This document shows positions 889-23,061 of a stretch of 64,000 nucleotides of DNA, piece by piece. The notes beneath the pieces were generated by a model. It worked only from the letters and a program-made list of their open reading frames with translations, was not told where the DNA came from and ran no database searches. Every line of letters starts with the position of its first letter. The stretch's first letter is position 1. The position numbers and the translations under genes are program-made. The DNA lies in contig CAWIIQ010000001.1 of the NCBI GenBank assembly GCA_963836185.1, forward strand, positions 1,088,001-1,152,000, in the 5' to 3' direction. Source of the stretch: Candidatus Krumholzibacteriia bacterium. Lineage in GTDB: Bacteria; Krumholzibacteriota; Krumholzibacteriia; Krumholzibacteriales; Krumholzibacteriaceae.

Positions 889-3157
889 ATGTCTTCGGCT
901 CGTCTCGAACCACGGATTTCCAACAACGCTCTCAGAGTGCTCGAGAGAAGGTATCTGCGCAAGGACGTTAACGGAAATCTGACAGAGACGCCGGAAGAAC
1001 TCTTCCAGCGGGTCGCGGCGAATATCGCCTCGGCCGAGAGGCGTTACGGTGACAACAAGAACCGCCTGGGCTGGGAAGATACGTTCTATAACATGATGGC
1101 CACCCTCGATTTTCTGCCCAATTCGCCGACCCTGATGAACGCCGGCGCCGAGCTCCAGCAGCTCTCCGCCTGCTTCGTCCTTCCGATCGAGGACTCGATG
1201 GAGAGCATCTTCGAGACGATCAAGAACACGGCGCTGATCCACAAGAGCGGAGGAGGCACGGGATTCTCCTTCTCGCGCATCCGCCCGAGGAACGACCGGG
1301 TCAAGACGACCAAGGGCATCTCGAGCGGGCCGATCTCGTTCATGACGGTCTTCGACGCCGCCACCGAAACGGTAAAGCAGGGCGGCACGCGCAGGGGCGC
1401 CAACATGGCGATCCTTCGCGTCGACCATCCCGACATCCTCGATTTCATCACGGCGAAGAAGGACAACAGAAAACTCAACAACTTCAACATCTCGGTCGCC
1501 ATCACCGAGGAATTCATGGAGGCGGTCAAGGCTGACCGCGACTATGAGCTGATCAATCCGCACGGCGGCGATGTCGTCGACAAGATATCAGCGAAGAAGG
1601 TCTACCAGATGATCGTCGAGCTCGCGTGGAAGAACGGCGAGCCGGGGATCGTTTTCATAGACAGGCTCAACGAGGATAATCCGACGCCCAACGCGGGGAT
1701 GATAGAGAGCACGAATCCCTGCGGGGAGCAGCCGCTTCTTCCATACGAGTCGTGCAATCTCGGTTCGATAAACCTGTCGCACATGGTCACGGAAGACGGG
1801 CGACAAGTCGAAGATCGATTTCAACAAGCTCGGCGAGACGGTGCGCAGGGCGACGCGGTTTCTCGACAACGTGATCGACGTGAACCGCTACCCGCTCAGC
1901 CAGATCAAGGATCAGACACTTGCCAACCGCAAGATCGGCCTCGGCGTCATGGGATTCGCCGACGCTCTCGTCAGGATGGAGATCCCCTACGACTCGGAGG
2001 AGGCCCTCGAGGTCGCCGAAGAGATCATGGGATTCATCCAGCGCGAGTCGACCGCGACGAGCCTGGAGCTGGCCGAAGAAAGGGGAGCCTTCCCCAACTT
2101 CAAGGGCAGCAGGTTCGATACTGAGGATGCGCCGAAGCGCCGCAACGCGACGACGACGACGATCGCTCCGACCGGCACGCTGAGCATCATCGCCGGGTGC
2201 TCGAGCGGTGTCGAGCCTCTCTTCGCTGTAGCCTTCATCAGGCATGTCATGGACAACGATGAGCTCGTCGAGGTAAACCCGGTCTTCGAGGAGATCGCCC
2301 GCCGCGAGGGATTCTTCAGCGAAGAGCTGATGAAGAAGATCGCCGAGGAGGGGACCGTTCAGGGGATAGAGGAGATACCCGAGCATTGGCGGCGTATCTT
2401 CGTTACCGCGCATGATATCACGCCCGAGTGGCACATCCGGATCCAGGCAGCCTTCCAGAAATACACCGATAATGCCGTATCCAAGACGGTGAACTTTCCG
2501 AAGTCCGCCACTAAGGAAGACGTCGAATCAGTGTACATCAAGGCGTACGAGATGGGCTGCAAGGGCGTGACAATATACCGTGACGGAAGCCGTCAGGAGC
2601 AGGTCCTCAACATAGGCTCTGTCAACCGCGAGACCGAAGACGGCGAACTCGAGCTGGGCGATGATCTGGGCGGACTGCTCAAGCCGAGGCCGCGTCCCGA
2701 GGTGACGACCGGCAAGACCCACAAGATGACGACGGGCTGCGGAAACCTCTACGTGACGATCAACGAGGACGAGCACGGCCCGTTCGAGGTCTTCACGCAG
2801 ATGGGCAAGGCGGGCGGATGCTCCGCCTCGCAGTCGGAGGCGATCAGCCGGCTGATATCTCTTTCGCTGCGCGCCGGAATCGATCCGAAGCAGATCGTCA
2901 AGCAGCTCCGCGGGATCAGGTGCCCCAACCCGGGATGGGAGAAGGGCGGCATGATCCTCTCGTGCAGCGACGCGATCGCCAGGGCGATCGAGCGGTACTT
3001 CCTCGAGGAGAAGACCCCGGTCGGCCACAAGGTCACCAAGATGTCGGCGGGATACCTCGACAAGGTCGCCGGCTTCTGCCCCGACTGCGGCGGCGTGATG
3101 GAGCACGAGGGAGGCTGCGCGGTCTGCCGCGAATGCGGCTTCTCCAAGTGCGGCTAA
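889..3157 (+). CDS. nrdJ: Class II (vitamin B12-dependent) ribonucleotide reductase, split by one frameshift near 1800
   Basis: [44 protein letters not shown]-terminal TGCG/CPDCG/CRECG domain; ORFs 889-2124 and 1841-3157. Confidence 0.9.
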
Positions 3158-3740: not shown

Positions 3741-3817
3741 TGACAGGAGGAAGGACAGGCGATAAAATATAGAAAATAATGCTCCGGTTGCCATGGGTGG
3801 GGAAAGGAAGTGACGAC

Positions 3818-4789
3818 GTGGGCAATCTAAGGGAAGCTATGCGCCGGGAGCTGCGGCTCCGCAACTACAGTCCGGGCACGATCAGGACATATCTTCAGCA
3901 CATGACAGAATTCACCAGGCACTTCGGCCGAAGTCCGTCCGAACTCGGCAGGGAAGAGATAAACTCCTACCTGCTCCACATGACGGAAGTAAGAAAGGTC
4001 TCCGCCACATACAGGGACCAGGCCATAAGCGCGCTGAAATTCTTCTACGGAAGGGTGCTGAAGAAACAGCTCATCATCGAAGAACTCCCACGTCCGAAGA
4101 AAGAATTCAAACTGCCGTCAGTGCTGAGCACAAAAGAAGTAGCTCGGCTCTTCCAGGCAGTCAGAAACCGGAAGCATCTCACCATCCTGATGCTCCTCTA
4201 TTCCGGTGGTATGAGAGTAAGCGAAGTAGTCAGGCTCAAACCTGAGGACATCGATCCAGAAAGACACCTTATCAGGGTGCGAGGGGGAAAGGGACGGAAG
4301 GACAGGTACACAGTCCTCTCGGATACGGCTCTCGATGTCCTCCGTGATTATTACCTGTCATGGAAGCCGGAATATTTTCTTTTTGAGGGAAACAGGAAAG
4401 GTTCTCATCTGTCGACAAGATCGGTCCAGAACGTCGTTTCAGCGGCCAGAAAGCGTGCCGGGCTGAAGAAGAAGTTCAGCACCCATGTTCTCAGGCACAG
4501 CTTCGCGACGCACCTCCTTGAAAGCGGCACCGATTTAAGGTATATTCAAGAACTACTGGGGCACAAAAGTGCCAGGACGACACAGATCTACACACATGTA
4601 ACACGGAGGGATATCGCACGGATCGTTAGCCCGCTGGACAGGATGATGGAGGGGGAAGCAGCGGCGACAGGACCGATCGGAACATCCGAACGGAAGAAAT
4701 CTCCCACCCACCCCACCCATTTTACTGAACGTCCTCGTCGCAAACGAACCAAAAACCGTCAAAACAACGAACCGGACACACACAAATAA
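3818..4789 (+). CDS. Tyrosine recombinase (N-terminal SAM-like domain plus catalytic domain) heading a cassette array; integron-integrase-like but lacking the IntI insertion
   Basis: LRNYSPGTIRTY; LYSGGMRVSE; GKGRKDR; HVLRHSFATHLLESG; LLGH; TTQIYTHV; GTG start at 3818 after AAGGAAG. Confidence 0.9.
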   Translation: MGNLREAMRRELRLRNYSPGTIRTYLQHMTEFTRHFGRSPSELGREEINSYLLHMTEVRKVSATYRDQAISALKFFYGRVLKKQLIIEELPRPKKEFKLPSVLSTKEVARLFQAVRNRKHLTILMLLYSGGMRVSEVVRLKPEDIDPERHLIRVRGGKGRKDRYTVLSDTALDVLRDYYLSWKPEYFLFEGNRKGSHLSTRSVQNVVSAARKRAGLKKKFSTHVLRHSFATHLLESGTDLRYIQELLGHKSARTTQIYTHVTRRDIARIVSPLDRMMEGEAAATGPIGTSERKKSPTHPTHFTERPRRKRTKNRQNNEPDTHK

Positions 4790-4810
4790 ACTGTTATATG
4801 ATAGCCGAGA
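4743..4810 (+). other. Candidate attI-like primary recombination site (G/TT crossover at 4793)
   Basis: GTTATATGATAGCCGAG (4793-4809) matches the reverse complement of the end of cassette 1 at 16/17 positions; AACGAACC direct repeats at 4743 and 4766. Confidence 0.7.
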
Positions 4811-4816
4811 GAGGCT

Positions 4817-5230
4817 ATGAGAAAGAAATACCGTAAACTTTTCACGATACTATTAGTATCAGCGTTATTGGCTTCTTGTGAAGCCAACGATATTGGAAAG
4901 TGCACACATATCCCTGTCGAAGGAGTCGCAACAATTGTCACAGTCTGAAGAGCGTTCTGAATACCAGGATTGTGGTATGGGGGTTTTATTATACATCGAC
5001 CTGGCTCCCGATTGTCCAATTTACGCTGAAAGATTTCAATACAAAATACTCGACTTCTGACTTTGTACCCCAAAAGATGGGTCGAAGCCGTTGGCTTGAT
5101 AGAAGGATCTCAGCATAGGTGTATTTACTTTGCTAAGGGTGGTCCTTGTCCTAACTATATCGTTTGGGAAGATATAGACGTACAAAGCATTGAAGATTCA
5201 TGTACTGTGTGGGCTGCGGAATCACCATGA
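4817..5230 (+). CDS. Cassette 1: Cys-rich lipoprotein, family A (frameshifted)
   Basis: MRKKYRKLFTILLVSALLASC lipobox; rebuilt CTHIPVEGVATIVTV...RWVEAVGLIEGSQHRC...DSCTVW aligns with 17236 and 20940. Confidence 0.7.
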
Positions 5231-5254
5231 TTGGGTTATGGGAGCTCGGCCATC

Positions 5255-5394
5255 ATATAACAGCAGTGTTCGCGGCTGCAGGCCTTCGGCCTTTCGCTCA
5301 GATGGCCTTTGTCACGGCGGCCGCAGGGCGACTGCCGCGCCAACCGGGCCTGGCGGCCCGGACGGCCACCTCGCGAACACGACCAATGTTATGT
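5255..5394 (+). repeat. attC-like repeat 1 (major type)
   Basis: ATATAAC...GTGTTCGCG...CGCGAACACGACCAAT-GTTATGT. Confidence 0.9.
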
Positions 5395-5420
5395 GACATG
5401 ACATTGAGATAGGAGGGGTA

Positions 5421-6016
5421 ATGAAAAGGCTATCTGCGGTCATATTCTTACTATTGCTGATGACGTCCGCTAGCGTACTTGCTGACTCGGTACAATTTAC
5501 CATACGAGTTCATCGAGACGTTGAGGATATCTCTGCGCTAGAGGTGAAAACCTTTGAGATCATTTCGGGGGGACTATTCCCAGAAACTGAACTAGAAACA
5601 GAGATGAAGGAGAAGATTCGAGCACGGATCGAGTCTACTGGATTAGTCTATGATCCTTCAAAGAAGGACCTCTTTGTTGGTGTTATCTTTGTTGGCTTCT
5701 CCGAGCATGGGAACAAGCTACCTGGATTGGAAGATTGGCCAAGTCAAACCCATGGATCTGTTGATTCAGCTTATGCGCTTCTAACTGCAGAATCTGAGAA
5801 TACAGAAGGGCAAGGTGCATGGAGGTCCATCCAAATCCACATTCTTGCACCACCTATCAGGAAGTTCCGGTTCGGATCTGGACGGGCTCGGTTACATACG
5901 ATGGATTAGAGACCGATACTGATAAACTGGCAAATGTGATGTTGGAACAATTACTTCTTGAATATCCCGTGCCATCTGGAAAGCCAGAGTTGCGAGAAGT
6001 GATATTAAGTGAATAG
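5421..6016 (+). CDS. Cassette 2: secreted hypothetical protein (frameshift near 5870)
   Basis: AGGAGG RBS, signal peptide; ORFs 5421-5909 and 5819-6016. Confidence 0.65.
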
Positions 6017-6033
6017 TGGAGGGGTGTCACGTC

Positions 6034-6173
6034 ACATAACAGAGTGTTCGCGGCTGCAGGCCTTCGGCCTTTCGCATAGATGGCCTTTGTCACGGCGGCC
6101 GCAGAAGCGCCCGCCGCGCCAACCGGGCCTGAGGGCCCGGACGGCCACCTCGCGAACACGACCAATGTTATTC
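6034..6173 (+). repeat. attC-like repeat 2
   Basis: ACATAAC...GTTATTC, near-identical core. Confidence 0.9.
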
Positions 6174-6200
6174 GCCACCTAACCTTGCAAAGGAGATAAT

Positions 6201-6368
6201 GTGGATGTATTGAAAATGTTGCTTCCTTTCGGGATTGCCTTTTTAGTGTTCTTAGCTATAAGGGAAGTAATGTGCTGGTACTTCAGAATTAACAATATGC
6301 TCAATATGCTCAATAGTATTGATACCAGTTTAAAAAGAATGTCGGGAAGGACAGACAGTTCTTCTTAA
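6201..6368 (+). CDS. Cassette 3: 55-aa single-TM protein
   Basis: AAGGAG RBS, GTG start, MDVLKMLLPFGIAFLVFLAIREVMCWYFRINN...; fills the cassette. Confidence 0.65.
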   Translation: MDVLKMLLPFGIAFLVFLAIREVMCWYFRINNMLNMLNSIDTSLKRMSGRTDSSS

Positions 6369-6399
6369 GACAATACAATTGATTTTACGGTTAGGCGGC

Positions 6400-6539
6400 G
6401 TATAACAGTGTGTTCGCGGCTGCAGGCCTTCGGCCTTTCGCTAAGATGGCCTTTGTCACGGCGGCCGCTAGAGCGCCCGCCGCGCCAACCGGGCCTGGCG
6501 GCCCGGACGGCCACCTCGCGAACACGACCAATGTTATCT
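6400..6539 (+). repeat. attC-like repeat 3
   Basis: GTATAAC...GTTATCT. Confidence 0.9.
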
Positions 6540-6617
6540 GAAACCACACCTTATCGTGGTATAATTCAGCGTTGCGTGGATTCTGGCCACAAGACACTGT
6601 GCCCCAAGGATGATGAG

Positions 6618-8555
6618 ATGAAGAGCAAGAACCTCACAAGAGTACTGATCGCCTGCCTATTTATCATGATCTCTAACGAAATATCTGCTCAATGGTATGA
6701 CTTGGGGAATCCTGTGTTCATTGACCCGGGGATGTTTCAGGACACACACATTTCTTACGATGGCAATGGAGGCCTGTTCTTTACGTGGTGCGATTGGAGA
6801 AACGGGGGAGCCCCTTATCAGGCGGATGTCTATGCACAATATGTGAATGCTGACGGAATAGCACAATTCGGACTGTCGGGGATGCCAATCGATACGATCA
6901 GCGGCAATCAGTACAAGGCTAATGTTTCATATGTGGGAGGGGATTGCGCGGTGATTGTATGGTCGGACCTGATGGATGGATATAAATTGCGAGCTCAGCG
7001 CATTAATTCCGAAGGAATGGTATTCTGGGGAGACAGAGGTGTGGATGTATCAGAACAGTCAGGAATGGGAGAAGTCGCATCAGTGATTCCAGATATTAAT
7101 GGAGGAGCCATAATATCCTGGAGAAATTTTTATGTTTGGATTCAACGGCTGGATTCACTGGGCAATCGGATGTGGGGGGAGGACGGAATAAGAATTAACA
7201 ATATTGGGGACACTGTTGGCAGTGCTCCTGCAATTGTGAGTGATGGGGCGGGAGGCGCAATAATCGTATGGTCAGACTATCGCTCTGGGAGCATGACGCA
7301 TGACATATATGCTCAACGTGTTAACTCAAACGGGGATGAGTTATGGACAGACGGGGGATTGCCGATTAACAACAATGAAGGAGCTCAAACTCAACCCTCA
7401 ATAGTGTTTGACGGAAATAACTCCTTTATCAGTTGGTTTAACAATACATGGGACATCGGTGTTCAGAAAATAGATCACGATGGTAATCTCTTATGGAATG
7501 TTAATGGAGTATATATTAGTCCAATAGAGCCCAGACCTAAGTATCGAGCCATGGCTGCCGATAATCATGGAGGTGTGATTGCCGCTTGGGAAGATTTTAG
7601 GAATACGAGTTCAACTGAATCTGATATTTACGCTCAGCGGATTCGCTCAGATGGGGAGATTGCATGGGATATAGATGGTATTGCGATTTACATTGGTGGA
7701 GGGGATCATCAACAGCCAGCAATTTCTACCACATCATCAGGCGATGCTATCATTGTTTGGACTAATTATTATGGAATTTACGCACAACGAGTGGATACCA
7801 GCGGAGCAATATATTGGCCAGAATACGGTGAAAACATTTCAAGAGGGCCAGGGTGCCAACACTGGCCACTTATCCAGAACATCGATGACAAAGAATTATT
7901 CGTTGTGTGGAATAAGAATGAGAATGATGCATGTTATGGAAACGACGATTTATATGTTCAAAAGATTGATCTTGAAGGACACATTGTAGGCACATTTCTA
8001 GATCAGGCCGAATGGTATTGTGTCTCTGATGAAATATGTTTGAAATGGTCGATTGTCTTATCCGCAAATAATCTTGAATTCATTATACTGCGCACATTAA
8101 GCGGAGAGCATAAGTACAGAGAAGTTGGCCGGATTATTGGATTCGAACGTCAATCCGAATTTTGCTATATTGATAGCACATGTAAACTTGGGGAAAAGTA
8201 CATATATCGTGTTATCGCTTCCATGGAAGATGATGAGATGTTGCTTTTTGAAACTACAACAATCCTGATGCCAAATCTAAAGTATGTTCTTCATCAGAAT
8301 TATCCGAATCCGTTCAATCCAATAACCAAAATCTCATACAGTCTGCCAAAACAGTGCATCGTCAGCTTAAAGATATACGATATTATGGGAAAAGAGATTG
8401 TATGCCTTGTTAACAATCAATTGCAGCAAGGTGAACAGGTAATACATTGGGATGGTAAAAACCACTTCGGAGATCTTGTTTCTTCCGGAACATATTTTTG
8501 CAAGCTTTTTGCTGGAAAACAGACAAAAGTAATTAAATTGATATGTCTGAGATGA
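6618..8555 (+). CDS. Cassette 4: secreted repeat protein with C-terminal FlgD-Ig/T9SS-type-A-like sorting domain
   Basis: Signal peptide; repeated DGxGGAIIxWxDxR...DIYAQR; C-terminal LHQNYPNPFNPITKISYSLP...WDGKN...VSSGTYF. Confidence 0.8.
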   Translation: MKSKNLTRVLIACLFIMISNEISAQWYDLGNPVFIDPGMFQDTHISYDGNGGLFFTWCDWRNGGAPYQADVYAQYVNADGIAQFGLSGMPIDTISGNQYKANVSYVGGDCAVIVWSDLMDGYKLRAQRINSEGMVFWGDRGVDVSEQSGMGEVASVIPDINGGAIISWRNFYVWIQRLDSLGNRMWGEDGIRINNIGDTVGSAPAIVSDGAGGAIIVWSDYRSGSMTHDIYAQRVNSNGDELWTDGGLPINNNEGAQTQPSIVFDGNNSFISWFNNTWDIGVQKIDHDGNLLWNVNGVYISPIEPRPKYRAMAADNHGGVIAAWEDFRNTSSTESDIYAQRIRSDGEIAWDIDGIAIYIGGGDHQQPAISTTSSGDAIIVWTNYYGIYAQRVDTSGAIYWPEYGENISRGPGCQHWPLIQNIDDKELFVVWNKNENDACYGNDDLYVQKIDLEGHIVGTFLDQAEWYCVSDEICLKWSIVLSANNLEFIILRTLSGEHKYREVGRIIGFERQSEFCYIDSTCKLGEKYIYRVIASMEDDEMLLFETTTILMPNLKYVLHQNYPNPFNPITKISYSLPKQCIVSLKIYDIMGKEIVCLVNNQLQQGEQVIHWDGKNHFGDLVSSGTYFCKLFAGKQTKVIKLICLR

Positions 8556-8602
8556 TTATATACTCAATTTGAGCACTATACTTATAAGTCAGGTGTGGCT
8601 TC

Positions 8603-8742
8603 AGATAACAGAGTGTTCGCGGCTACAGGCCTTCGGCCCTTCGCTCAGATGGCCTTTGTCACGGCGGCCGCTAGAGCGCCCGCCGCGCCAACCGGGCCTG
8701 GCGGCCCGGACGGCCACCTCGCGAACACGACCAATGTTATCC
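8603..8742 (+). repeat. attC-like repeat 4
   Basis: AGATAAC...GTTATCC. Confidence 0.9.
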
Positions 8743-8777
8743 GACATCTTATTGAAGCTTAAAGAGGTGAAATTGCT

Positions 8778-9409
8778 ATGAAAATGATGAAGCCAATTGT
8801 TGTTCTGATAGTACTGATACTCCTGTTCTCGGTCGCAAAGTATGTCAGAGTTCAAGCATTTCATATTAGAAAGTGAGAGCAAGGTTGAGCTTCCTAATTA
8901 TTTTTATGATGACCTAGAGCCATACGTTACAACAATAGATCGCCAGCATTCTGACAAAGAGGATGATTCGCCTTGCTGAATCTGTTTATCCACCAAGAAG
9001 GAAGATGCTTGAGAAGCATCCAGGTTTGCCAGAAGAAATGGTAGCAGATTCACTGTGGGTGGCTGAAGAGCACGGCGATTTAAAAATACCCTACACACTA
9101 ACTGCGAGTGCAGTTCGGTACTATATTGATCTGATGAAGAGGTACGAAAAGAAGGACGAAACGCTCGATAGTATCCCGAAAAATGCAAAGTTAACATATA
9201 AAGCAGACATGCACGGTCCATCAACTTTCATTATTAATGGTGAATTGTATGAAAATGTTAAGGTTGTAACCCTTGAGTTAAGCTGGTCCACCTATACTAA
9301 TGCTTTGAATGCTGGAGGATTCAGTATTGTCAAGTTTGTGATTTTCGACAGGGAGAAGAATATTCTGGGTGTGTTTGGGGATGGATTCCCTGGAGAATGG
9401 GCGTCATGA
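8778..9409 (+). CDS. Cassette 5: exported hypothetical protein (frameshifted)
   Basis: GAGGTG RBS, hydrophobic N-terminus at 8778; body ORF 8963-9409. Confidence 0.55.
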
Positions 9410-9437
9410 ACATTGGGAATATCCAATAGAAGACGTC

Positions 9438-9576
9438 GGATAACAGAGTGTTCGCGGCTGCAGGCCTTCGGCCTTCGCTCAGATGGCCTTTGTCACGGCG
9501 GCCGCTGGAGCGCCCGCCGCGCCAACCGGGCCTGGCGGCCCGGACGGCCACCTCGCGAACACGACCAATGTTATTC
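9438..9576 (+). repeat. attC-like repeat 5
   Basis: GGATAAC...GTTATTC. Confidence 0.9.
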
Positions 9577-9999
9577 GCCATGTGGCAGATGAATAAATTT
9601 AACTTCGATTTCTTCTTATTTTTTAGGACTCTTCTTTCCCCGCAGTACAGCCCCATCCAGCCTCAGGGTGACTTCCGGAGTCTCTAAAGCCTGATCGATC
9701 CAGTACCTCATATTTTCTCCGATGTTAAGGCCTAGACTCGTGCCGTAACGGGCCTGAGGGTGGCTTGCGGCTGAGACTGAGATCCTCGATCCTGAGGTTT
9801 TAAGGGGCCGAGATTGGTAGGGGAGAGCTCGTAAGGAACTTGCTTTCAACGATCGGGGCAATTCAGCGTACGACTTCGGGTCGCGCTGTCGCATCTTTAT
9901 CAGCCAAGGGTTGGCTGAAAGACTATTGAACCGGAGAGATTAAAGGATTAGATTTATAGGTGAGGGGTGATCTAGTATGAATTCCACACGGCGTATAAC
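9570..9999. other. Cassette 6: ORF-less cassette, copy A (candidate ncRNA/regulatory element)
   Basis: No credible ORF; block-wise nucleotide similarity to 13214-13645. Confidence 0.7.
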
Positions 10000-10106
10000 A
10001 GAGGTGTTCGCGGCTGCGCATGTCACCCGGCCTGCAGAGCACGCCGGGCGCCAATGCTTCGCGTACACCGCCTGCGGCGGCGTCGCGAACACTCACAATG
10101 TTATAC
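9993..10106 (+). repeat. attC-like repeat 6 (divergent type)
   Basis: GTATAACAGAGGTGTTCGCG...CGCGAACACTCACAATGTTATAC; different internal hairpins. Confidence 0.85.
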
Positions 10107-10125
10107 GATAAATGCCCTTATTCCT

Positions 10126-10155
10126 TTGACATATTCAATTCTACATAGATAGAAT
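10126..10155 (+). promoter_or_regulatory. Internal promoter of the kinase cassette
   Basis: TTGACA-18 nt-TAGAAT, ATG 8 nt downstream, no SD sequence. Confidence 0.55.
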
Positions 10156-10163
10156 CTCCATAC

Positions 10164-13062
10164 ATGTTAGGGGAAACAATCTCACATTATGAAATTCTCG
10201 AGAAGCTCGGCGAGGGCGGGATGGGCGTAGTCTACCGCGCCCGTGACACGAAGCTCGACCGCGAGGTGGCTATCAAGCTCCTGCCCCCGCACCTGAGCTC
10301 CGATCCCGAGGCGGTAAAGAGGTTCGTCCATGAGGCGAAGACCGCCTCGGCCCTGAACCACTCCGCTATAGGCGTCATCCACGAGATAGACGAGACGGAT
10401 GACGGCCAGACGTTCATCGCAATGGCCCTCTACGAGGGGGGACTCTCAGGGAGAAGCATCGACAGCGGCAGCATGACATCTAGGCGAAGCAGTAACCATA
10501 GCCTCCCAGATAGCCTCGGGTCTCGACCAGGGCCCACGAGAAGGGGATAGTCCACAGGGACATCAAGCCGCAGAACATACTTCTGACCAGAGACGGCGAG
10601 GCGAAGATAATCGACTTCGGCCTAGCGAAGCTCGCCGGAAGGACGAAGCTGACGAGGGACGGGAGTACGCTCGGCACTGCCGCCTACATGTCCCCCGAGC
10701 AGGCGAGGGGAGAAGAGGTCGATCACCGTTCGGACATCTTCTCTCTCGGGACGATCCTGTACGAGATGCTCGCCGGTGAGCCACCATTCAAGGGGGAGCA
10801 CGAGGCGGCGTTGCTCTACGGGATAGTGCACGAGGAGCATGAAGAGATATCGGAGAAGTGCGGGGGCATAGCACCGGAATTGTGCAATGTGGTCGGAAAG
10901 ACGCTGAAGAAGGAAAAGGAAGCAAGGTATCAGAACGCGGCGGACCTGAAAGCTGAATTGAAGAGGTCGAGCACCGGCAGTGTCGATGAGGGCGGACCGA
11001 GGGATACGAAGGACGCTGGAAGAGGTAAAGGGTTCTGGATAGGCATTGCGGCGGTCACCGTGACACTCACAACTGCCGTACTTCTCGTAATGACCGGACG
11101 TGAGCCGGCGCCGCTTACCGCTTCGGAGATGACTCTCGCTGTGGTTGATTTTAATGACCTAGCAACAGAACCGGATCCTATAAAATCCAAGACGATTACA
11201 GAGCTGCTAAATACCTCCCTGGGAGATTTCTGTCCGATACGCGTTCAGAGCCCGGAACGAGTAAGGGAATGTCGAAGACAGCTTTTCGGTTCAACTGAAG
11301 CGCAGATAGAGGAAGGGCAGGAACTGGAGATCGCGCGCAGGAGCGAAGCGACCTATTTGCTTACTGGCAGCATCAGTGTCGTTGGCAACGACGGTTTTAT
11401 CTCTTGGAGGCTCATAGATGTACTAAGTGGGACTATCATCAAGGCCGGAACAGTCGAACCAGGTGAGATGATGGCAGTAGTTGATAAGATCGTGGAGGTC
11501 GTATTGCCGGAGATCGCAGAAGCTTCGGGAGTTGAGCAGACTGCAGAGCAGGTTTCCGTGGCACAATCTCGACATCTTCACAGCAGGCGTTTGAGCATTA
11601 CGTTAGGGGTAAGATAAATCATGACAGCGATCGTCCAGTCGAAGCACTCGATGAATACACGAAAGCTGTCGGATTAGATTCCAGTTTTGCTCTTGCCTGG
11701 TTTGCTATGTCTAGACTCTACTATGGTGCCATGATGATTAGGTATGATCCGGCACTTTATAATAAATACAATGAGCTTGCCTTAAGGTATGAATCCAGGA
11801 TGGGCACCAAGGAGAGGATGCAGCTTCGTGCTATTAATCTTGGAGGAGTCAAAACGATAGAAAAACTCAAGGAAATCCTCGAGCTCTGGCCTGATGACCG
11901 CGAGACGCTGCAGATGCTCGTCCTCAGAACCCACTATAATTGGATGCAAAAAGAATGTATCGAGTACTCTCGAATCGGATTGACGCTATACCCGGAAGAC
12001 CAGGTTTTCGGAGGAAGTATCTATATCACATCTCTTAATAATTTGGGTCTAAGCCAAGAAGCGATGAAGGCGTCCAGAGAATTTATCAGAAAATATCCTG
12101 ACGATTCGGCAGCTTGGCGTTCTCTTGCCGAGACATTTGTGGTCATGGGGCAACCGGACAGTGCCGAGGCGATCTGCAGAATAATTTTGGAGAAATATCC
12201 TGAAGGCAGCCAGAATGCAGAGGCAAGGCGGATGATAGCACGATGTGCATATCTTGCAGGCGATCTAGATGAATCGATTTCAAGGTATGATAGATTATTG
12301 TCAGACGCGAACCTGGATGAATCTACTCGTCAGGAGATTCTTTCTAACTATACTCACATTATAGATCTTACTTATGTATATCGAGAAGCTGGCCGCTACT
12401 ACGACGCCTTGCGGACCTTGAATGAGGCAAGACCGTACTTCGGCAACCGACCTGATCGCTGGGAATTACAAATGGGCTATCTGCTAGTAGATATTGGCAG
12501 GAACAAGAATGCGTTGAAACTCGCTGAAGAGATGCTTGCATCAGATAATATGCCAATGCAGAGGTATGCCAGACGATTCATGGGCAAGGCGCAAGTTAAT
12601 AATGGTGATATCCAAGGTGCTCAGGAAACTGTATCGATACTGGATGGACTTGGCATAGTCAGGGGACCTATCTACAAGTACCATTCATTTTTCACTCAGG
12701 CATATATTGCATTGGCAAGGAATGATGCTTCAGTGTCTCTAAAGCATCTTGATGATGCGGCCCAGATAGTGGGCTTCTCATACTGCATGTTCGGAATCGA
12801 GCTGAAGACATTGCAGGCGGAGGCGAACAGACTGGCAGGGGACCTGGAGGCGGCAGCCTCGATCCATGAAGAACTGCTGAGGATTCATGGCGGACATGCA
12901 TTGTCACACTTCGAACTCGGTAAACTGTATGAGGCAATGAGAAGAACGGACGAGGCAAAACTGCACTATAATAGATTCCTAGAGATGTGGAATAACGCTG
13001 ATGATGGATTACCTCAACCTGCACTCGCGAGGGAGAGACTGACAGCGCTTAAAGGTGTTTAA
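10164..13062 (+). CDS. Cassette 7: Hanks-type Ser/Thr kinase-TM-TPR protein (several frameshifts)
   Basis: [38 protein letters not shown]; TM segment; TPR-like helices. Confidence 0.85.
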
Positions 13063-13081
13063 ATAGAGCAGGGCTTTCATC

Positions 13082-13220
13082 GCATAACAGTGTGTTCGCG
13101 GCTACAGGCCTTCGGCCCTTCGCTCAGATGGCCTTTGTCACGGCAGCCGCAGGGCGACTGCCGCGCCAACCGGGCCTTGAGGCCCGGACGGCCACCTCGC
13201 GAACACGACCAATGTTATCC
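13082..13220 (+). repeat. attC-like repeat 7
   Basis: GCATAAC...GTTATCC. Confidence 0.9.
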
Positions 13221-13645
13221 GCTATGTGGCAGCTGATTGAATTTATCTTCGATCTTTTCTTTTTATTGGGACCCTTCTTCCCGCCCATCCCAACCATTAC
13301 CAGCCGGAGGTCGACTTCCGAGAGTCTCTAGAGCTAGTTCTGCAAGGTGACGAGTCCAACCCCTGTAAGAATAATGCCTCTATAGATGATCCGGCCTGAG
13401 GGTGGCTTGCGAGGCGCGACTGAGATCCTCGGGTCAAGAGGCTTTAAGGGCCGAAATAGGGGTAGGGGAGCGATCGTCAGGGACTTGCTATCATCGGTCT
13501 GAGGCAGGTTCATCTCTCGACTTCGGGAGGCGCAGTCGCAGTTCTATCAACGGGTCAACGCCGAAAGACTATTGAAAGTTCGAGATTAACGGTATAGATT
13601 TAGAGGTGAGGGGTGCCTATATATGAATTCCACACAGCGGATAAC
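13214..13645. other. Cassette 8: ORF-less cassette, copy B
   Basis: Paralog of 9570-9999; no credible ORF. Confidence 0.7.
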
Positions 13646-13767
13646 AGCAGTGTTCGCGGCTACGGGCCTTGAGGCCCTCGCTCAGATGGCCTTTACCGGC
13701 CTTTGGCGCGCCGGCCAACCGGGCCTGAGGCCCGACGACCAACTCGTTAACATGACCACTGTTATGG
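13639..13767 (+). repeat. attC-like repeat 8 (degenerate)
   Basis: GGATAAC...CTCGTTAACATGACCACTGTTATGG; right arm eroded. Confidence 0.75.
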
Positions 13768-14291
13768 AGGGACGTTTTAGAAAATGTAACATACGAATCA
13801 TTCTGGTTGTTCTCGTCTTAACTTCAGCTCTTATATCCTGTGGAGAGGATAGCTGTGAGTGCCCTACACCTAATCCTATTGAATACACCAGCGTTGTGTT
13901 CTACTACAAAGATCATCCATATTGCTATTCAAGTACTGCTGGATTAGAGGTAGAGCTTTATGTCGGTGATGAACTCATAGGGTATTGGCATTATGGCTCT
14001 AATCCAGCAGATCCAAATCTAGATTATCCTAATTCGCAACCTTTTCCGGTTGAGCTCGGAAGTGCCTTGAACCTTGAATTCAGGTATTGGGATAAATCAG
14101 GTCATGAGATGAGAGACACAGCAAATCTCATCATGGATGATGAAGATTGCACTTACGTCAGTTTCTTTGCCGACATAGAAAATCCCTGCCTGGGTGCTGA
14201 GTTATGTGATAGTTGTATTGTTTTTGAGATCGATGAAAACATGAAGTGTGAGGGTGCTGATTCAATCTATGTCGCTGTAGTGACTAATTGA
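13764..14291 (+). CDS. Cassette 9: Cys-rich lipoprotein
   Basis: IILVVLVLTSALISC lipobox; ATG lies within the GTTATG box. Confidence 0.65.
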   Translation: MEGRFRKCNIRIILVVLVLTSALISCGEDSCECPTPNPIEYTSVVFYYKDHPYCYSSTAGLEVELYVGDELIGYWHYGSNPADPNLDYPNSQPFPVELGSALNLEFRYWDKSGHEMRDTANLIMDDEDCTYVSFFADIENPCLGAELCDSCIVFEIDENMKCEGADSIYVAVVTN

Positions 14292-14304
14292 TGGAGACAG
14301 CGGC

Positions 14305-14445
14305 ATATAACAGTGTGTTCGCGGCTACGGGCCTTGCGGCCCTTCGCTCAGATGGCCTTTGTCACGGCGGCCGCAGAAGCGCCCGCCGCGCCAACCGGGC
14401 CTGGCGGCCCGGACGGCCACCTCGCGAACACGACCAATGTTATCC
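14305..14445 (+). repeat. attC-like repeat 9
   Basis: ATATAAC...GTTATCC. Confidence 0.9.
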
Positions 14446-14461
14446 GCAAGCGTATTATGAT

Positions 14462-14857
14462 ATGAACAAGTTCCCAGCAATATTTTTTTTGTCACTCCTT
14501 CTGGCTTCCTGCCGAGATCCTTTCGCGCATGAATGGGAAAACTTATATCAGCTCAGCGCAGATCAGATTATTCTACCCGATACTGCTCAAATATTTCAAC
14601 CGATGCAGGTCAAAGTGCAGGTTACTTTAGATACATCTAATCATAATTACAAAGACCAATATATCGAAACAACACCAGATGGCTATCTGATAGTGCTGAT
14701 TGGTGTAATAGAAGATACGAGATTTCCAGATAATGACCCGGATCCCAGAACAGAATGGCATTCTTTTAACCTTATCCCATTTAAGAAAGGAGAAGTAATC
14801 ATTGAGGGGAAACGAGTCAATTCAGAGAATCTTATTGATTCAGTGTATGTTCAGTAG
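14462..14857 (+). CDS. Cassette 10: lipoprotein, family B
   Basis: LLLASC lipobox; DQIILPDT, EWHSF motifs shared with cassettes 12 and 13. Confidence 0.75.
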   Translation: MNKFPAIFFLSLLLASCRDPFAHEWENLYQLSADQIILPDTAQIFQPMQVKVQVTLDTSNHNYKDQYIETTPDGYLIVLIGVIEDTRFPDNDPDPRTEWHSFNLIPFKKGEVIIEGKRVNSENLIDSVYVQ

Positions 14858-14870
14858 TGGGCACGCCTGC

Positions 14871-15010
14871 GCATAACAGAGTGTTCGCGGCTACGGCCTT
14901 CGGCCTTTCGCTCAGATGGCCTTTGTCACGGCGGCCGCTGGAGCGCCCGCCGCGCCAACCGGACTTGGCGGCCCCGGACGGCCACCTCGAAAACACGACC
15001 AACGTTATAC
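14871..15010 (+). repeat. attC-like repeat 10
   Basis: GCATAAC...GTTATAC. Confidence 0.9.
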
Positions 15011-15039
15011 GAAAGGCCGGGAAGCGATAAAAAAGAACC

Positions 15040-15075
15040 TTGACAGATATGCATATATGATGCATACTGATGCAT
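15040..15075 (+). promoter_or_regulatory. TA promoter with three ATGCAT palindromes
   Basis: TTGACA(15040)-17 nt-CATACT(15063); ATGCAT at 15049, 15060, 15070. Confidence 0.6.
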
Positions 15076-15271
15076 ATGAGAACTACACTGAATATTGACG
15101 ATGATCTGATTCGCAAGGCAGCGAAGATGACAGGGATCAGCGAGAAGACTTCCCTGGTACGCCTCGGGCTTGAAGCATTGATCGCTCTTGAGAGCGCGAG
15201 AAGGCTAGCAGCTCTTGGCGGCACAGAGAAAGATCTTGGCCCTGATTCCTCGCAAACGAACGAGTTCGTGA
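15076..15271 (+). CDS. vapB: Cassette 11: VapB-type antitoxin (stop codon bypassed by a probable 1-nt indel)
   Basis: MRTTLNIDDDLIRKAAKMTGISEKTSLVRLGLEALIALESARRLAALGG. Confidence 0.8.
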
Positions 15272-15273
15272 GT

Positions 15274-15630
15274 ATGATCCTGGCTGATACATCTGTATGG
15301 ATCGATCATCTTCGCAATGGAAACAAGCGGATGGCTCTTTTTCTGAACGAAGGTGTCGTTTTGTGTCATCCTTTCATACTCGGGGAATTGGCCTGTGGGA
15401 ACCTCAAAAACAGAGCTAAAATACTCGATATGCTTGCTTCCCTTCCGACAATGCCAGTTGCAGAGCACAGTGAAGTGCTTGATTTCATTTCCCGATACAA
15501 ATTCCAAGGGAAGGGTATAGGGTGGATCGATGCCCATCTGTTGGCATCAACATTTCTGGCGAAAAGCCGAATCTGGACTCTCGACAAATCTTTACTAAAG
15601 ATAGCAAAAGACCTGAAGGTCTCAATATAG
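15274..15630 (+). CDS. vapC: Cassette 11: VapC PIN-domain toxin
   Basis: MILADTSVWIDHLR, HPFILGELACG, GIGWIDAHLL, WTLDK. Confidence 0.88.
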   Translation: MILADTSVWIDHLRNGNKRMALFLNEGVVLCHPFILGELACGNLKNRAKILDMLASLPTMPVAEHSEVLDFISRYKFQGKGIGWIDAHLLASTFLAKSRIWTLDKSLLKIAKDLKVSI

Positions 15631-15662
15631 GGCAATCAAAAGGTTTAGTAGCCGGCCACTTC

Positions 15663-15803
15663 GTATAACAGAGTGTTCGCGGCTGCGGGCCTTGCGGCCC
15701 TTCGCTCAGATGGCCTTTGTCACGGCGGCCGCAGGAGCACCCGCCGCGCCAACCGGGCCTGGCGGCCCGGACGGCCACCTCGCGAACACGACCAATGTTA
15801 TCC
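15663..15803 (+). repeat. attC-like repeat 11
   Basis: GTATAAC...GTTATCC. Confidence 0.9.
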
Positions 15804-15820
15804 GAAAGCGCGGGATATGT

Positions 15821-16202
15821 ATGAATAAAAAAATCGCATTATCGATCCCATTACTTCTTGTAGTTGCATGTAATCTATTCAAGCCACCTGAAAAGATACA
15901 AACATGGGCTGATGTCGAACAGATTGTTGTTCCTGATACTGTTGACTATTTCGAAGCTTTCGAGATCAGCGCTGAAATTTCAATGGACCATACATGTAAG
16001 TATGTAGGTCCTGTGCTGGAAGAAACTTCTGAGGGCTGCTCCATTACCATTATCGTTGAATCTGTGGAAGTGAGCTTTCATGAAAAGGATATTTCTGAGT
16101 GGCATACCTTTACTCTGAGACCTCTCGAATTGGGATCTTACATCATCAGGGTGAAAAGTAAGAATGTGGAAGATTCTTGTTGATTCAACTTACGTTCGTT
16201 AG
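15821..16202 (+). CDS. Cassette 12: lipoprotein, family B (3' frameshift)
   Basis: LLLVVAC lipobox; EQIVVPDT, EWHTF; shifted tail LVDSTYVR. Confidence 0.72.
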
Positions 16203-16212
16203 ATGCGCCATC

Positions 16213-16353
16213 GGATAACAGTGTGTTCGCGGCTACAGGCCTTGCGGCCTTTCGCTCAGATGGCCTTTGTCACGGCGGCCGCAGGAGCGCCCGCCGCGCC
16301 AACCGGGCCTGGGGGCCCGGACGGCCACCTCGCGAACACGACCAATGTTATGC
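16213..16353 (+). repeat. attC-like repeat 12
   Basis: GGATAAC...GTTATGC. Confidence 0.9.
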
Positions 16354-16369
16354 GAAGGCGAGGGGAACA

Positions 16370-16759
16370 ATGAAATTAGCGGTTGGAATAATTGCAATTA
16401 TCGTTATTTGCTCTTCCTGCGAAGATCCACCAGTAAAAGTATGTGACCGACCAGTAATGTTGGAAGTAGAACAGTTGATGGCTCCGGATTCTTGCAGGTT
16501 AGGTGAGCAGGCACAATTACAAGTCGAAGTAATTCTTAACGGTTCAAGTTATAGTTATTTCGGCCCCGACATTAACGACACAGATTCGGGTTGTAGAATA
16601 AGGATTATGGGAGAAAAAGATGAATGTGCACTTAACACTCCTTGCATTTGCTACGAGTGGCATTCGTTTGTTATTTCCCCCTCACAAACGGGAATATACA
16701 TAATAGAGATAATTAATTCTCAAGCTGATGATTTAGCGGATACAATAACAGTGTATTAG
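16370..16759 (+). CDS. Cassette 13: lipoprotein, family B
   Basis: GAGGGG RBS; ICSSC lipobox; EQLMAPDS, EWHSF. Confidence 0.75.
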   Translation: MKLAVGIIAIIVICSSCEDPPVKVCDRPVMLEVEQLMAPDSCRLGEQAQLQVEVILNGSSYSYFGPDINDTDSGCRIRIMGEKDECALNTPCICYEWHSFVISPSQTGIYIIEIINSQADDLADTITVY

Positions 16760-16769
16760 CTGTGCCATC

Positions 16770-16908
16770 GGATAACAGAGTGTTCGCGGCTGCAGGCCTT
16801 CGGCCTTTCGCTCAGATGGCCTTTGTCACGACAGCCGCAGGGCGACTGCCGCGCTAACCGGGCCTGGCGGCCCGGACGGCCACCTCGCGAACACGACCAA
16901 TGTTATGT
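16770..16908 (+). repeat. attC-like repeat 13
   Basis: GGATAAC...GTTATGT. Confidence 0.9.
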
Positions 16909-16935
16909 GCAATGCTGTGCATTAATTTAAAGGGG

Positions 16936-17100
16936 ATGAAGTTGAAGAAACTATCTCTGATCATCGGAATTCTCGCATTAGCCGTTGCAATAATCATCTT
17001 CATATATGCTTCTGGTGCTAGGCGAATTTATAGCGGCCTCTTATTTATATTGATAGCTATCATCCAATTCACTTTTGCTCTTCGAAAAGGTGATAAATGA
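16936..17100 (+). CDS. Cassette 14: 54-aa two-TM protein
   Basis: Two hydrophobic segments; fills the cassette. Confidence 0.65.
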   Translation: MKLKKLSLIIGILALAVAIIIFIYASGARRIYSGLLFILIAIIQFTFALRKGDK

Positions 17101-17116
17101 TCAATAAGGGCACTGC

Positions 17117-17189
17117 ACATAACAGAGTGTTCGCGGCTGCGGGCCTTGCGGCCCGGACGGCCATCTCGCGAACACGACCAACGTTATGC
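17117..17189 (+). repeat. attC-like repeat 14 (73 bp, internally deleted)
   Basis: Both ends intact; central ~65 nt missing. Confidence 0.85.
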
Positions 17190-17235
17190 GAAAAGCCGCA
17201 GACGTTAAAACCTACCCCTGGGAGGAGATGATGTG

Positions 17236-17692
17236 ATGTTGAAATCAGGAATGTTCATCATTGCCGCTGTTTTTTTTATTCTCGCTCCTTATTTCTTGTG
17301 AGGATGAAGAAGGCATCATTTGTGGGGGAGAGTGCCTTTATCATGAGATACCAGGCACAGCATCTATTATTTCTGTTACTGATATTGATGGATCTACCTA
17401 TTGTGGAGATCCTGTCGAGGTGATTTACAACTTTACTCCAGATGATCCAAGCGATATTGATCCAGACTATTTGACGATTTGGCCACTCGATAATATTTAC
17501 TACAAGATAGGTCAAAACAATCCGCCACGAAGATGGGTTGAAACGCATGGACTTCTGGCAGGAACAGACCATCCATGTACAAGATTTAGGATTTACAAGG
17601 GATCTTGTGTGCCTGTTGGATACAATTTTGATGGCATAGATGATTACAGTGTCTCTGATTCATGTGATGTATGGGAGCAAGAGATACCATAA
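17236..17692 (+). CDS. Cassette 15: Cys-rich lipoprotein, family A (frameshift in poly-T run)
   Basis: SLLISC lipobox; GTASIISV, FTPDDPS, PPRRWV, DSCDVWE. Confidence 0.75.
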
Positions 17693-17716
17693 GTAAACTT
17701 GATTACTGCGACCACC

Positions 17717-17847
17717 GCATAACAGAGGCATTTGCGTACTCGCCTGGCTTCGCCAGAACTAGGCTGTCACGGCCGTTGCAATTTGAGTGCATGATGATAG
17801 ATAAATAGGGGATTGCGGCTGCGCCGCGAATGCTCACAATGTTATAC
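17717..17847 (+). repeat. attC-like repeat 15 (divergent type)
   Basis: GCATAACAGAGGCATTTGCG...CGCGAATGCTCACAATGTTATAC; compensated stem. Confidence 0.8.
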
Positions 17848-17875
17848 GGCATGCAGTTCATGGCAGGGGAATAAA

Positions 17876-18418
17876 TTGATCCATATAGTATTTGATCTCG
17901 AAGCTACCTGCTGGGAACAGGGCACAACGCCGAGTCGAATGGAAATTATTGAAATTGGGGCCACAAGGCTGCACCCTGATACATACGAAATCGATAGTGT
18001 GTTCTCTACCTTTGTGCGACCTGTCGAGGAACCTGAGCTAAGCGACTTCTGCAAGAACCTAACATCCATCCAACAAACTGACGTCGATCTTGCGCCTGTT
18101 TTTCCCGAGGCGATGGATATGTTCTTTGCCTGGATTGATGCTAGTGAAGTTACCTTTTATTCCTGGGGCTACTATGATATCAAGCAGATCCGAATGGATT
18201 ACCAGCGTCATGGAAATTCTGAGCCGGCGGCATTCAGTAGCCACGTTAATTTGAAGAAGCTATTTTCTGAGATCTATGGCAGGAAGCCTTGTGGAATGCG
18301 GAAGGCTCTAAATATACTTGGGTTGGGGCATGAAGGGACGCATCATAGGGGTGTGGATGATGCAAAGAACATTTCCAGGATCGCTAAAGTAATTCTTCCG
18401 GAATATTATGGCTCCTGA
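17876..18418 (+). CDS. Cassette 16: DEDDh 3'-5' exonuclease (ERI-1/KapD-like)
   Basis: VFDLEATCW, EIIEIGA, WGYYD, HHRGVDDA. Confidence 0.85.
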   Translation: MIHIVFDLEATCWEQGTTPSRMEIIEIGATRLHPDTYEIDSVFSTFVRPVEEPELSDFCKNLTSIQQTDVDLAPVFPEAMDMFFAWIDASEVTFYSWGYYDIKQIRMDYQRHGNSEPAAFSSHVNLKKLFSEIYGRKPCGMRKALNILGLGHEGTHHRGVDDAKNISRIAKVILPEYYGS

Positions 18419-18465
18419 AGACCTGAGTATTGGGGAACTGGACTTTGAATAGGTGGCTGCACGCC

Positions 18466-18525
18466 GGATAACAGTGTGTTCGCGGCTGCAGGCTCAGGCG
18501 GCCACCTCGCGAGCATAAGCAATTG
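18466..18525 (+). repeat. attC-like repeat 16 (terminal, truncated, GTT box lost)
   Basis: GGATAACAGTGTGTTCGCGGCTGCAGGC...GGCCACCTCGCGAGCAT. Confidence 0.7.
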
Positions 18526-21362: not shown

Positions 21363-21365
21363 GGC

Positions 21366-21782: not shown

Positions 21783-21861
21783 AATATATAGACTCACAAA
21801 ATCTGTAGGACAATGCGGAAATACCACTTGTCAGAATCTGTGATGACGGTATTTTCAAGGT

Positions 21862-22476: not shown

Positions 22477-22530
22477 ACACCAGTCATATTCAATGCTTAT
22501 AATGCTGTCCGTTATACTAGCGGAGGTTAT

Positions 22531-23013: not shown

Positions 23014-23061
23014 AGTCGAACCGGACGATTATCCATGACCAGGAGTAGAGAGAAGAGAGTG

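Follow-up and report, generated by a model that had tools for sequence, protein, structure and literature searches.

The 64,000-nucleotide stretch of a Candidatus Krumholzibacteriia genome analysed here (the window; contig CAWIIQ010000001.1, positions 1,088,001 to 1,152,000) carries an integron-like array, in which a gene for a tyrosine recombinase without the I2 insertion of the integron integrase IntI is followed by 16 cassettes. The start (head) and the end (tail) of a cassette pair with each other over about 15 bp in a sequence private to that cassette, broken by a fixed mismatch at position 11. We favour, with moderate confidence, the explanation that head and tail together form the outer half-site of a folded single-strand site, which is recombined with a double-stranded attI by the I2-less recombinase, with the G·T wobble at the mismatch likely marking the bottom strand. 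Integrons are defined in the field by the I2 domain and by extrahelical bases, and the array in the window has neither.

Heads were aligned to their own reverse-complemented tails, with positions counted from the G of GTT, and compared with 100,000 permutations. Own heads and tails are identical at 121/192 places over positions 8–19, where the permutations average 63 and reach at most 97 in 100,000, at 61/80 over positions 12–16 (mean 23.8, maximum 46 in 100,000), and at 26/32 over positions 9–10 (permuted 11.4). The signal fades to 20/64 against 16.1 at positions 17–20 (p = 0.13) and to background at positions 20–30. Chance as the source of the pairing is thus ruled out by permutation. A tail aligned with the next head, as the two lie in the array, gives 25/75 over positions 12–16, which is the background level. 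Position 8 is almost invariably paired (head G in 15/16, tail C in 16/16), whereas position 11 matches in only 2/16 cassettes, with A in 14/16 heads and C in 16/16 tails; with the tail reverse-complemented, as in all head/tail pairs below, this mismatch reads A/G. Positions 1–5, 8 and 11 are fixed, leaving positions 6–7, 9–10 and 12 to ~18 as the private signal. An earlier note on this DNA had placed the 16 heads (GTTAT) and 16 tails (ATAAC) correctly, its four quoted head/tail examples are letter-exact, and its counts at positions 8 and 11 were reproduced. It had also ascribed terminal inverted repeats of 13–19 bp to each cassette: stems of 13–21 bp, one extra mismatch allowed, are found in 13 of the 16, and those of cassettes 9, 13 and 15 are shorter (5, 9 and 8 bp).

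The pairing is maintained as cassettes diverge. Compensatory double changes were found between cassette 6 and its homologue at locus L002 (position 9, C/C to A/A), between cassettes 6 and 8 (position 10, C/C to T/T), and between homologous cassettes of genomes G056 and G077 (position 7, T/T to A/A); the change between G032 and G077 is one-sided. Heads resembling those of cassettes 6 and 8 stand first in the array in three relatives, so the units change place. Together with the joint change of head and tail, this upholds the cassette boundaries and the intact movement proposed in the earlier note. Cassettes 6 (9570–9999) and 8 (13214–13645) are 72–77% alike over their aligned parts and have no Rfam match.

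The same rule recurs in homologous arrays. Cassettes and repeats of relatives from this phylum were paired by hand, with unpaired heads excluded; genomes within each group studied are related, and pair counts are therefore not independent. Twenty-four cassettes from 10 relatives match at 16–21/24 of positions 12–16 each and at 4/24 of position 11, where the pair is A/G in 16/24 and the head carries A in 21/24. For Bacteroidota, we scanned 44 loci (40 genome regions and 4 plasmid regions) with a detector that relied on the inner stem and GTT/AAC only, obtaining 65 repeats and 37 unselected consecutive head–tail pairs; locus L044 was dropped from the pairs. These match in 31–35 cases at positions 4–9, in 3 at position 11, in 32, 30, 25 and 17 at positions 12–15, and at background beyond. 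Within-array permutation of positions 12–15 gave a mean of 78 and a maximum of 103 in 20,000, against 104/148 observed. The phylum relatives and the Bacteroidota arrays rule out a feature unique to the window array.

As a canonical control, we used IntI arrays of the window's phylum, including a second integron of the same genome (120 repeats, 103 pairs). Here heads and tails match in 98, 92, 81, 88, 78 and 72 pairs at positions 4–9, falling to 24, 37, 22, 24 and 23 at positions 10–14. We then applied one selection rule to both sets, requiring at least 5/6 matches at positions 4–9 and scoring at least 3/4 at positions 12–15. Under this rule, positions 12–15 are paired in 23/30 Bacteroidota pairs (14 loci), with A11 in 30/30 heads and G11 in 23/30 tails, and in 1/67 unique canonical pairs (12 genomes), two of which carry A/G at position 11. 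Canonical IntI cassettes pair privately to position 9 only; private pairing over 9 bp is therefore integron-wide, while longer pairing and a fixed mismatch are associated with the I2-less recombinase. Long pairing as a property of all integrons is ruled out beyond position 9. The pairing past a 7-bp R box described in the earlier note is thus real, and its proper baseline is 9 bp; that reading overlooked both the integron-wide 9-bp pairing and the copy of the mismatch in the inner arm, described below. The second integron is a canonical, co-oriented IntI array (C1:2072864 downward, ~2.07 Mb), whose intI gene looks frameshifted at its 5′ end. Terminal loops of its attC sites resemble the terminal loop of the window repeats (blastn, C1:2070522 and 2071347), a likeness that suggests loop exchange between the canonical and I2-less systems of the genome.

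The repeats between cassettes contain an inner arm that reproduces the outer one. Inner-stem positions were counted four bases in from the tail AAC. The detectors accepted only inner stems without a gap (I2-less) or with a bulge (canonical) and are silent on that trait. In 40 Bacteroidota repeats, the inner stem matches in 27–40/40 at each of positions 1–16 except position 11 (6/40), which has A on the left in 35/40 and G on the right in 29/40; the right spacer measures 6–8 nt. In the window and its phylum, the contiguous inner stem is only 8 bp long and contains G8. Positions 1–8 pair gap-free (13–15/15 per position), the single extrahelical base of canonical sites is absent from this box in the window repeats, and a hairpin of 24–56 nt is looped out between positions 8 and 9. 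Right-arm positions 9–16 find a partner on the left side (at least 6/7, position 11 ignored) in 31/38 repeats of this phylum, 24–56 nt away from box 1–8, and in 26/38 the partner is significant at p < 0.05 (300 shuffles each). Position 11 of these 31 repeats is A/G in 24, A/A in 5, A/T in 1 and G/G in 1. The phylum's inner arms comprise at least seven co-varying sequence types, one of them present in near-identical form in twelve repeats of the window. The spacers between the arms are unequal (4–5 and 8 nt in the window), and a branched junction of this kind appears when the bottom strand of the common repeat is folded to minimum energy. Judging from the sequence, such folding of the bottom strand would place two half-sites in inverted orientation around an unpaired spacer of 4–5 and 8 nt, and both would carry G8 and, at position 11, a G·T wobble.

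Directly 3′ of the I2-less gene, a conserved attI-like arm and the first head were found at 17 loci of this phylum and 17 of Bacteroidota. The left arm carries G8 at a 4-nt spacer in 16/17 phylum loci (8/17 heads assigned by position only) and at a 5-nt spacer in 13/18 Bacteroidota rows, one of which, from L045, is the head after an empty cassette and not an attI. The conserved arm before the first head fits a putative double-stranded attI with a 6–7-bp overlap; dif has 11-bp arms and a 6-bp centre (PMC5357621).

The recombinase scored 244.8 bits against profile NF040815 (cut-off 220) and 230.9 against TIGR02249 (cut-off 265), the latter as two stretches. It aligns with the Vibrio cholerae integrase VchIntIA (2A3V) in two pieces, 21–190 and 208–289, and its GKGRKDR and HxxRH motifs are 59 residues apart, ~41 fewer than the 100 residues of 15/17 canonical IntI proteins (the motif was not found in the other two). 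The split, below-cut-off TIGR02249 match, the two-piece alignment and the short inter-motif distance define a recombinase without I2. Its catalytic residues are invariant or nearly so across 84 homologues, and an AlphaFold model (pLDDT 86), for which 2A3V was the best Foldseek match, confirms the fold. Homologues occur in 21/208 genomes of the window's phylum (E ≤ 1e-70) and in 48/301 sampled genomes of the Bacteroidota-side phylum (E ≤ 1e-66), where they are 41–54% identical to the window protein. In a careful tree of 49 rows with XerC/D outgroups, IntI and the I2-less proteins join against XerC/D with support of 100/100, and IntI is, by this tree, the nearest recombinase family. The I2-less set appears there as the sister of IntI with weak support (80/89, bootstrap not settled), whereas a quick tree of 81 rows with poorer outgroups nests IntI inside the I2-less proteins (98). 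Integrases linked to IS91 transposases (L044:9953–11990 and two copies in L042) fall in or beside the I2-less family. At L044, a Clostridium homologue beside an IS91 transposase, no array was seen; IS91-type elements also lie inside the L042 array. Not every homologue, then, heads an array.

In the mechanism that we propose, the folded bottom strand would be the substrate and a double-stranded attI its partner, with one exchange at G|TT. Each monomer would cover a 13–15-bp Xer-like arm, requiring an arm paired over that length in almost any sequence. The base read would be a T at position 11 of the AAC-bearing strand. The attI right arm would offer such a T, and so would either arm of the hairpin formed by the bottom strand, in which it stays paired with G as a wobble. 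Position 11 is C instead in the hairpin of the top strand and in the double-stranded tail, both of which would be ignored. Because the partner is G and not A, this C is present, and cassette orientation would be fixed without extrahelical bases. Reading of the T would explain both the fixed polarity and the better keeping of A than of G at position 11, seen in four of five arm sets (the exception being the window's own heads and tails). The suggestion in the earlier note that the fixed mismatch marks the strand in place of extrahelical bases would fit these data, namely the missing I2, the lack of a single bulged inner base and the copy in the inner half-site. A second strand exchange would be prevented by the spacer, which is unpaired and unequal, leaving a junction for replication to resolve, as in the attP(+) site of CTX phage. 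Excision may proceed by looping out a cassette, its ends pairing between two near-identical repeats. The private sequences could arise by copying of one arm onto the other, with selection holding position 11.

In folding predictions, the bottom strand in its circle form is more stable than the top strand in 14/15 cases, by 2–14 kcal/mol, and more stable than the array form in 14/15. As the earlier note held from sequence, and as folding bears out, the full outer arm forms only in the circle or in a looped-out cassette, so integration should outrun ordinary excision. Two reverse-oriented group II introns in plasmid arrays (L043:8628–10463 and L045:16464–18318) are inserted at the tail TA|AC, with bottom-strand targets TTGT|T and TGT|T; a target of the TTGT|T type and this position are those given for IIC-attC introns (PMC7923331), to which the present introns were matched by target and not by tree. 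An Rfam search of seven Bacteroidota loci matched group II intron models only, and the repeats themselves gave no match. Also in keeping with the proposed mechanism, G8 and A11 are present in one arm of a dif-like site of this genome, a single case.

Several observations weigh against this explanation. Reading of the position-11 T does not account for the cases with A/A, for the weakly conserved left arm of attI or for excision from array-form sites. A/A occupies position 11 in some well-paired cassettes of the relatives (3/24) and in 5/31 inner arms; despite these variants, we noticed no cassette in inverted orientation among the arrays read, and preference for the bottom strand must therefore have other contributors too. 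Conservation at position 11 is poor in the attI left arm (G in 8/17 in this phylum, A in 11/18 in Bacteroidota). The outer duplex averages −13.3 on the bottom strand and −12.3 on the top, a shift of ~1 kcal/mol through the wobble. This effect is too small for the wobble to select a strand through stability alone, a possibility that we reject, and any effect would need reading by a protein; the AlphaFold model and its Foldseek comparison identified no residue that reads position 11. The array-form outer arm is weak, with a mean of −6.5 kcal/mol, ~7 kcal/mol weaker than pairing with the own head. No excised circle or recombination event was observed: contigs of four sequencing runs (88% likeness) showed no interpretable circle, and their joints of head-like and tail-like ends have unknown middles and are not evidence of circles. 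The sequencing runs listed included no RNA data and gave only small shares.

We regard it as unlikely, albeit worth serious consideration, that the substrate is the same folded strand and the wobble is structural, bending or loosening the arms or keeping the hairpin imperfect, with strand choice left to the spacers and overall folding. The bottom-strand preference of whole-site folds goes far beyond the wobble's share, spacer and terminal structure are known to affect strand choice in canonical attC sites (Nivina 2016, PMC5027507), and A/A variants exist. A mere structural defect would not, however, demand the fixed polarity seen in both half-sites and two phyla, with A in the head or left arm and G in the tail or right arm; the reverse arrangement, G in the head and A in the tail, occurs in 0/16, 0/24 and 0/30 pairs.

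The extended match might instead be a by-product of cassette making or repair, by insertion of a gene into a ready hairpin frame or by arm copying, with no need for it in recombination; we consider this improbable. In G032, G077 and G048, one 18-nt head does stand before genes among which no similarity was detected, and in G030 it precedes a 103-nt fragment. An empty cassette of 38 bp, in which head and tail are joined directly into a hairpin, is found twice in the array of a Chryseobacterium plasmid (L045:10891–10928 and 12986–13023), and cassette 7 holds a member of a chromosomal paralogue family. The empty cassette is a candidate frame for new cassettes, and by their sequences such frames appear to be reused. 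Arm copying would nevertheless wipe out the position-11 mismatch, yet the mismatch persists between paired neighbours; it is also present in the inner arm, which is no cassette end, and stem length follows the type of recombinase (9 bp with IntI against ~15 without I2). A footprint of cassette creation, offered in the earlier note, cannot by itself account for a mismatch kept in both half-sites.

More doubtful again is ordinary double-stranded recombination of the Xer type between polar sites, with C at −11 in left arms and A at +11 in right arms. This polarity is seen at every top-strand junction (tail/inner-left and inner-right/head), and the recombinase passes the cut-off of a XerA-like model. 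A single dif-like site (C1:1695651), which lies ~36–50 kb away from two Xer-like genes, resembles the cassette heads in that one of its arms carries G8 and A11. Double-stranded sites, though, need no head that co-varies with a tail 0.2–3 kb off; the spacers are unequal (4–5 against 8 nt), the left inner arm is split by a 24–56-nt hairpin and is whole only when folded, and the group II introns occupy the hairpin position. Least probable of all is processing in trans by host XerC/D, as for CTX phage, or by the genome's canonical IntI, the adjacent recombinase being incidental: the canonical array at C1:2.07 Mb with its similar attC terminal loops and the resemblance of heads to one dif-like arm speak for it, but the attI-like arm and first head follow the I2-less gene directly at the 17 phylum and 17 Bacteroidota loci, none of the window's cassette bodies matched the canonical IntI array of the same genome, and long stems occur in only 1/67 canonical cassettes.

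Several known systems come close to the array. Like canonical integrons, including those with a co-oriented integrase, it has the order recombinase, attI, tandem cassettes, with GTT/AAC crossovers, palindromic repeats, private head/tail complementarity and, in related arrays, tail group II introns. Unlike them, it has no I2, no single extrahelical inner-box base, spacers of 4–5 and 8 nt, an outer arm of ~15 bp with fixed G8 (9 bp in canonical cassettes), a G·T wobble at position 11 in both half-sites and, in arrays of this phylum, an entire hairpin that loops out of the inner stem between positions 8 and 9. As it lacks both defining features, I2 and extrahelical bases, we do not class it as a canonical integron, though it is integron-like in its working. 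I2 is the domain that reads the extrahelical bases, and strand choice without it has been posed as an open paradox (Escudero 2016, PMC4792948). IntegronFinder requires an IntI-specific profile and excludes I2-less recombinases (Cury 2016, PMC4889954); I2-less arrays would therefore be missed.

The rAID-1 arrays of Bacteroidales (Ross et al., bioRxiv 10.1101/471110) have a 5′ XerD-like recombinase >44% identical to BF9343_RS08045, cargo with a G+C content ≤41%, and immunity genes. As in the description of these arrays, the window has a 5′ tyrosine recombinase followed by at least two co-directional genes, repetitive intergenic sequence reminiscent of integrons, and cargo with a G+C content below that of the host (0.37–0.51 in the cassettes against ~0.57 in the genome). 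It differs from them in that this range extends above their limit, the host lies outside Bacteroidales, and the cargo is not immunity genes; a Pfam scan of the cassette open reading frames (ORFs) found no immunity domain. The part of the rAID-1 text available gives no site structure, head/tail pairing or wobble, and layouts are compared here by description and not by enzyme identity. In CTX attP(+), a folded single strand mimics double-stranded DNA without extrahelical bases, an unpaired overlap blocks the second exchange, resolution is replicative and integration is favoured (PMC3442271, PMC5357621, PMC4792948); these four features, known there, would hold here under the proposed mechanism. 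For CTX, the enzyme is the host's XerC/D and the sequence at dif is fixed, whereas the window has a dedicated single recombinase, many private arms and its own attI. Elements of the IMEX/CTX type have no recombinase of their own and integrate at chromosomal dif by means of host XerC/D; in the window the recombinase adjoins the array, and the dif-like site is elsewhere in the genome. The DUF1874 motif, found in consecutive intergenic regions with no integrase beside it and proposed as possibly a complex single-stranded attC-like site (PMC5737381), is multistem and intergenic like the window repeats; Rfam gave no match for the whole window, so no relationship is shown.

A literature search whose coverage did not extend to subscription journals or to the rAID motif figure and supplements found no description of long stems or of the wobble, and the accessible portions of PMC5027507, PMC9024848, PMC8618304, PMC3053210, PMC5737381 and bioRxiv 2024.07.02.601686 do not cover them. 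The rAID motif figure and supplements may bear on novelty.

More tentatively, and with less confidence than we place in the folded site itself, these arrays could represent a second widespread class of integron without I2 or extrahelical bases, in which a Xer-like sister of IntI would choose the strand by reading G·T wobbles placed with twofold symmetry. Such a class might preserve a pre-canonical state, answer the chicken-and-egg problem of I2 and attC, and have supplied tet(X3) as a first-position cassette. On plasmid pHH1107 (L119:7880–9150), tet(X3) lies directly behind tpnF, a shortened recombinase homologue with 49% identity. Its unit has A11 in the head and G11 in the tail, which pair at positions 8–10 and 12–15 and not at 5–7, and is followed by half a repeat. 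This one case is suggestive of a cassette of the I2-less family, and the tpnF homologue was also matched on 24 Acinetobacter plasmid records. The rule described here (paired arms of ~15 bp, G8, and A11/G11 in both half-sites) provides a detector for I2-less arrays and allows a direct bench test of folded-strand choice by a tyrosine recombinase without I2. It further suggests how rAID-like arrays could work and where the tet(X3) unit on Acinetobacter plasmids may have come from.

The array lies 3′ of the recombinase gene and consists of the 16 tandem cassettes, each bounded by GTT and AAC, with 15 complete palindromic repeats (59–127 nt) between them and a shortened last repeat (Table 1).

Table 1 Recombinase gene, putative attI, cassettes and repeats of the array, in window positions
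Feature	Position	Strand	Description
Tyrosine recombinase	3779..4789	+	No IntI I2 insertion; co-oriented with the array; catalytic R146, K171, H236, R239, H262 and Y271 present
Putative attI	4778..4803	+	Left arm (C at 4781 = G8, bottom strand); 4-nt spacer 4789–4792; crossover G|TT 4793/4794; right arm = first head
Cassette 1	4793..5261	+	17-bp end stem, A11/C11; frameshifted paralogue of the cassette 15 gene
Cassette 2	5388..6040	+	16-bp stem; 162-aa protein, no Pfam match
Cassette 3	6167..6406	+	18-bp stem; 55-aa ORF
Cassette 4	6533..8609	+	21-bp stem, one extra mismatch; Por_Secre_tail domain protein
Cassette 5	8736..9444	+	17-bp stem
Cassette 6	9570..9999	+	16-bp stem; ORF-poor, 430 bp; homologue of cassette 8 and of the L002 first cassette
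Cassette 7	10100..13088	+	13-bp stem (extends if more mismatches are allowed); fragmented Ser/Thr kinase-TPR gene, many chromosomal paralogues
Cassette 8	13214..13645	+	18-bp stem; ORF-poor; followed by degenerate repeat 13646–13760
Cassette 9	13761..14311	+	Head/tail match stops at 5 bp (A8, G11); likely damaged head
Cassette 10	14439..14877	+	15-bp stem; paralogue of cassettes 12 and 13
Cassette 11	15004..15669	+	13-bp stem; VapB-PIN toxin-antitoxin pair, single frame
Cassette 12	15797..16219	+	15-bp stem
Cassette 13	16347..16776	+	9-bp stem, head G11; tail almost identical to the cassette 12 tail
Cassette 14	16902..17123	+	14-bp stem; followed by a short 59-nt repeat
Cassette 15	17183..17723	+	8-bp stem (decayed)
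Cassette 16	17841..18472	+	16-bp stem; RNase_T-family exonuclease
Truncated last repeat	18473..18525	+	No GTT; array end
Type repeat	6041..6166	+	Spacer 6041–6044; inner box 1–8 6045–6052; looped-out hairpin 6053–6077; inner box 9–16 6078–6085 (A11 6080); terminal loop; right inner arm 6143–6158 (C11 6148); 8-nt spacer 6159–6166
15 complete repeats	5262..17840	+	5262–5387, 6041–6166, 6407–6532, 8610–8735, 9445–9569, 10000–10099, 13089–13213, 13646–13760, 14312–14438, 14878–15003, 15670–15796, 16220–16346, 16777–16901, 17124–17182, 17724–17840; bottom strand is the putative folded substrate

The kinase-TPR gene of cassette 7 (10100–13088) has at least 16 paralogous matches elsewhere in the genome at 65–84% identity and may be a host gene that has only recently acquired its cassette frame. 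Reading frames are shifted or fused at 889–3157 (ribonucleotide-reductase-like by translation), 4817–5230, 10164–13062 and 15070–15630, the last three in cassettes 1, 7 and 11; all four may be assembly indels. Downstream of the array, after a peroxidase gene, positions 20940–23277 hold short cassette-like genes for secreted proteins without repeats, the first of which resembles cassettes 1 and 15.

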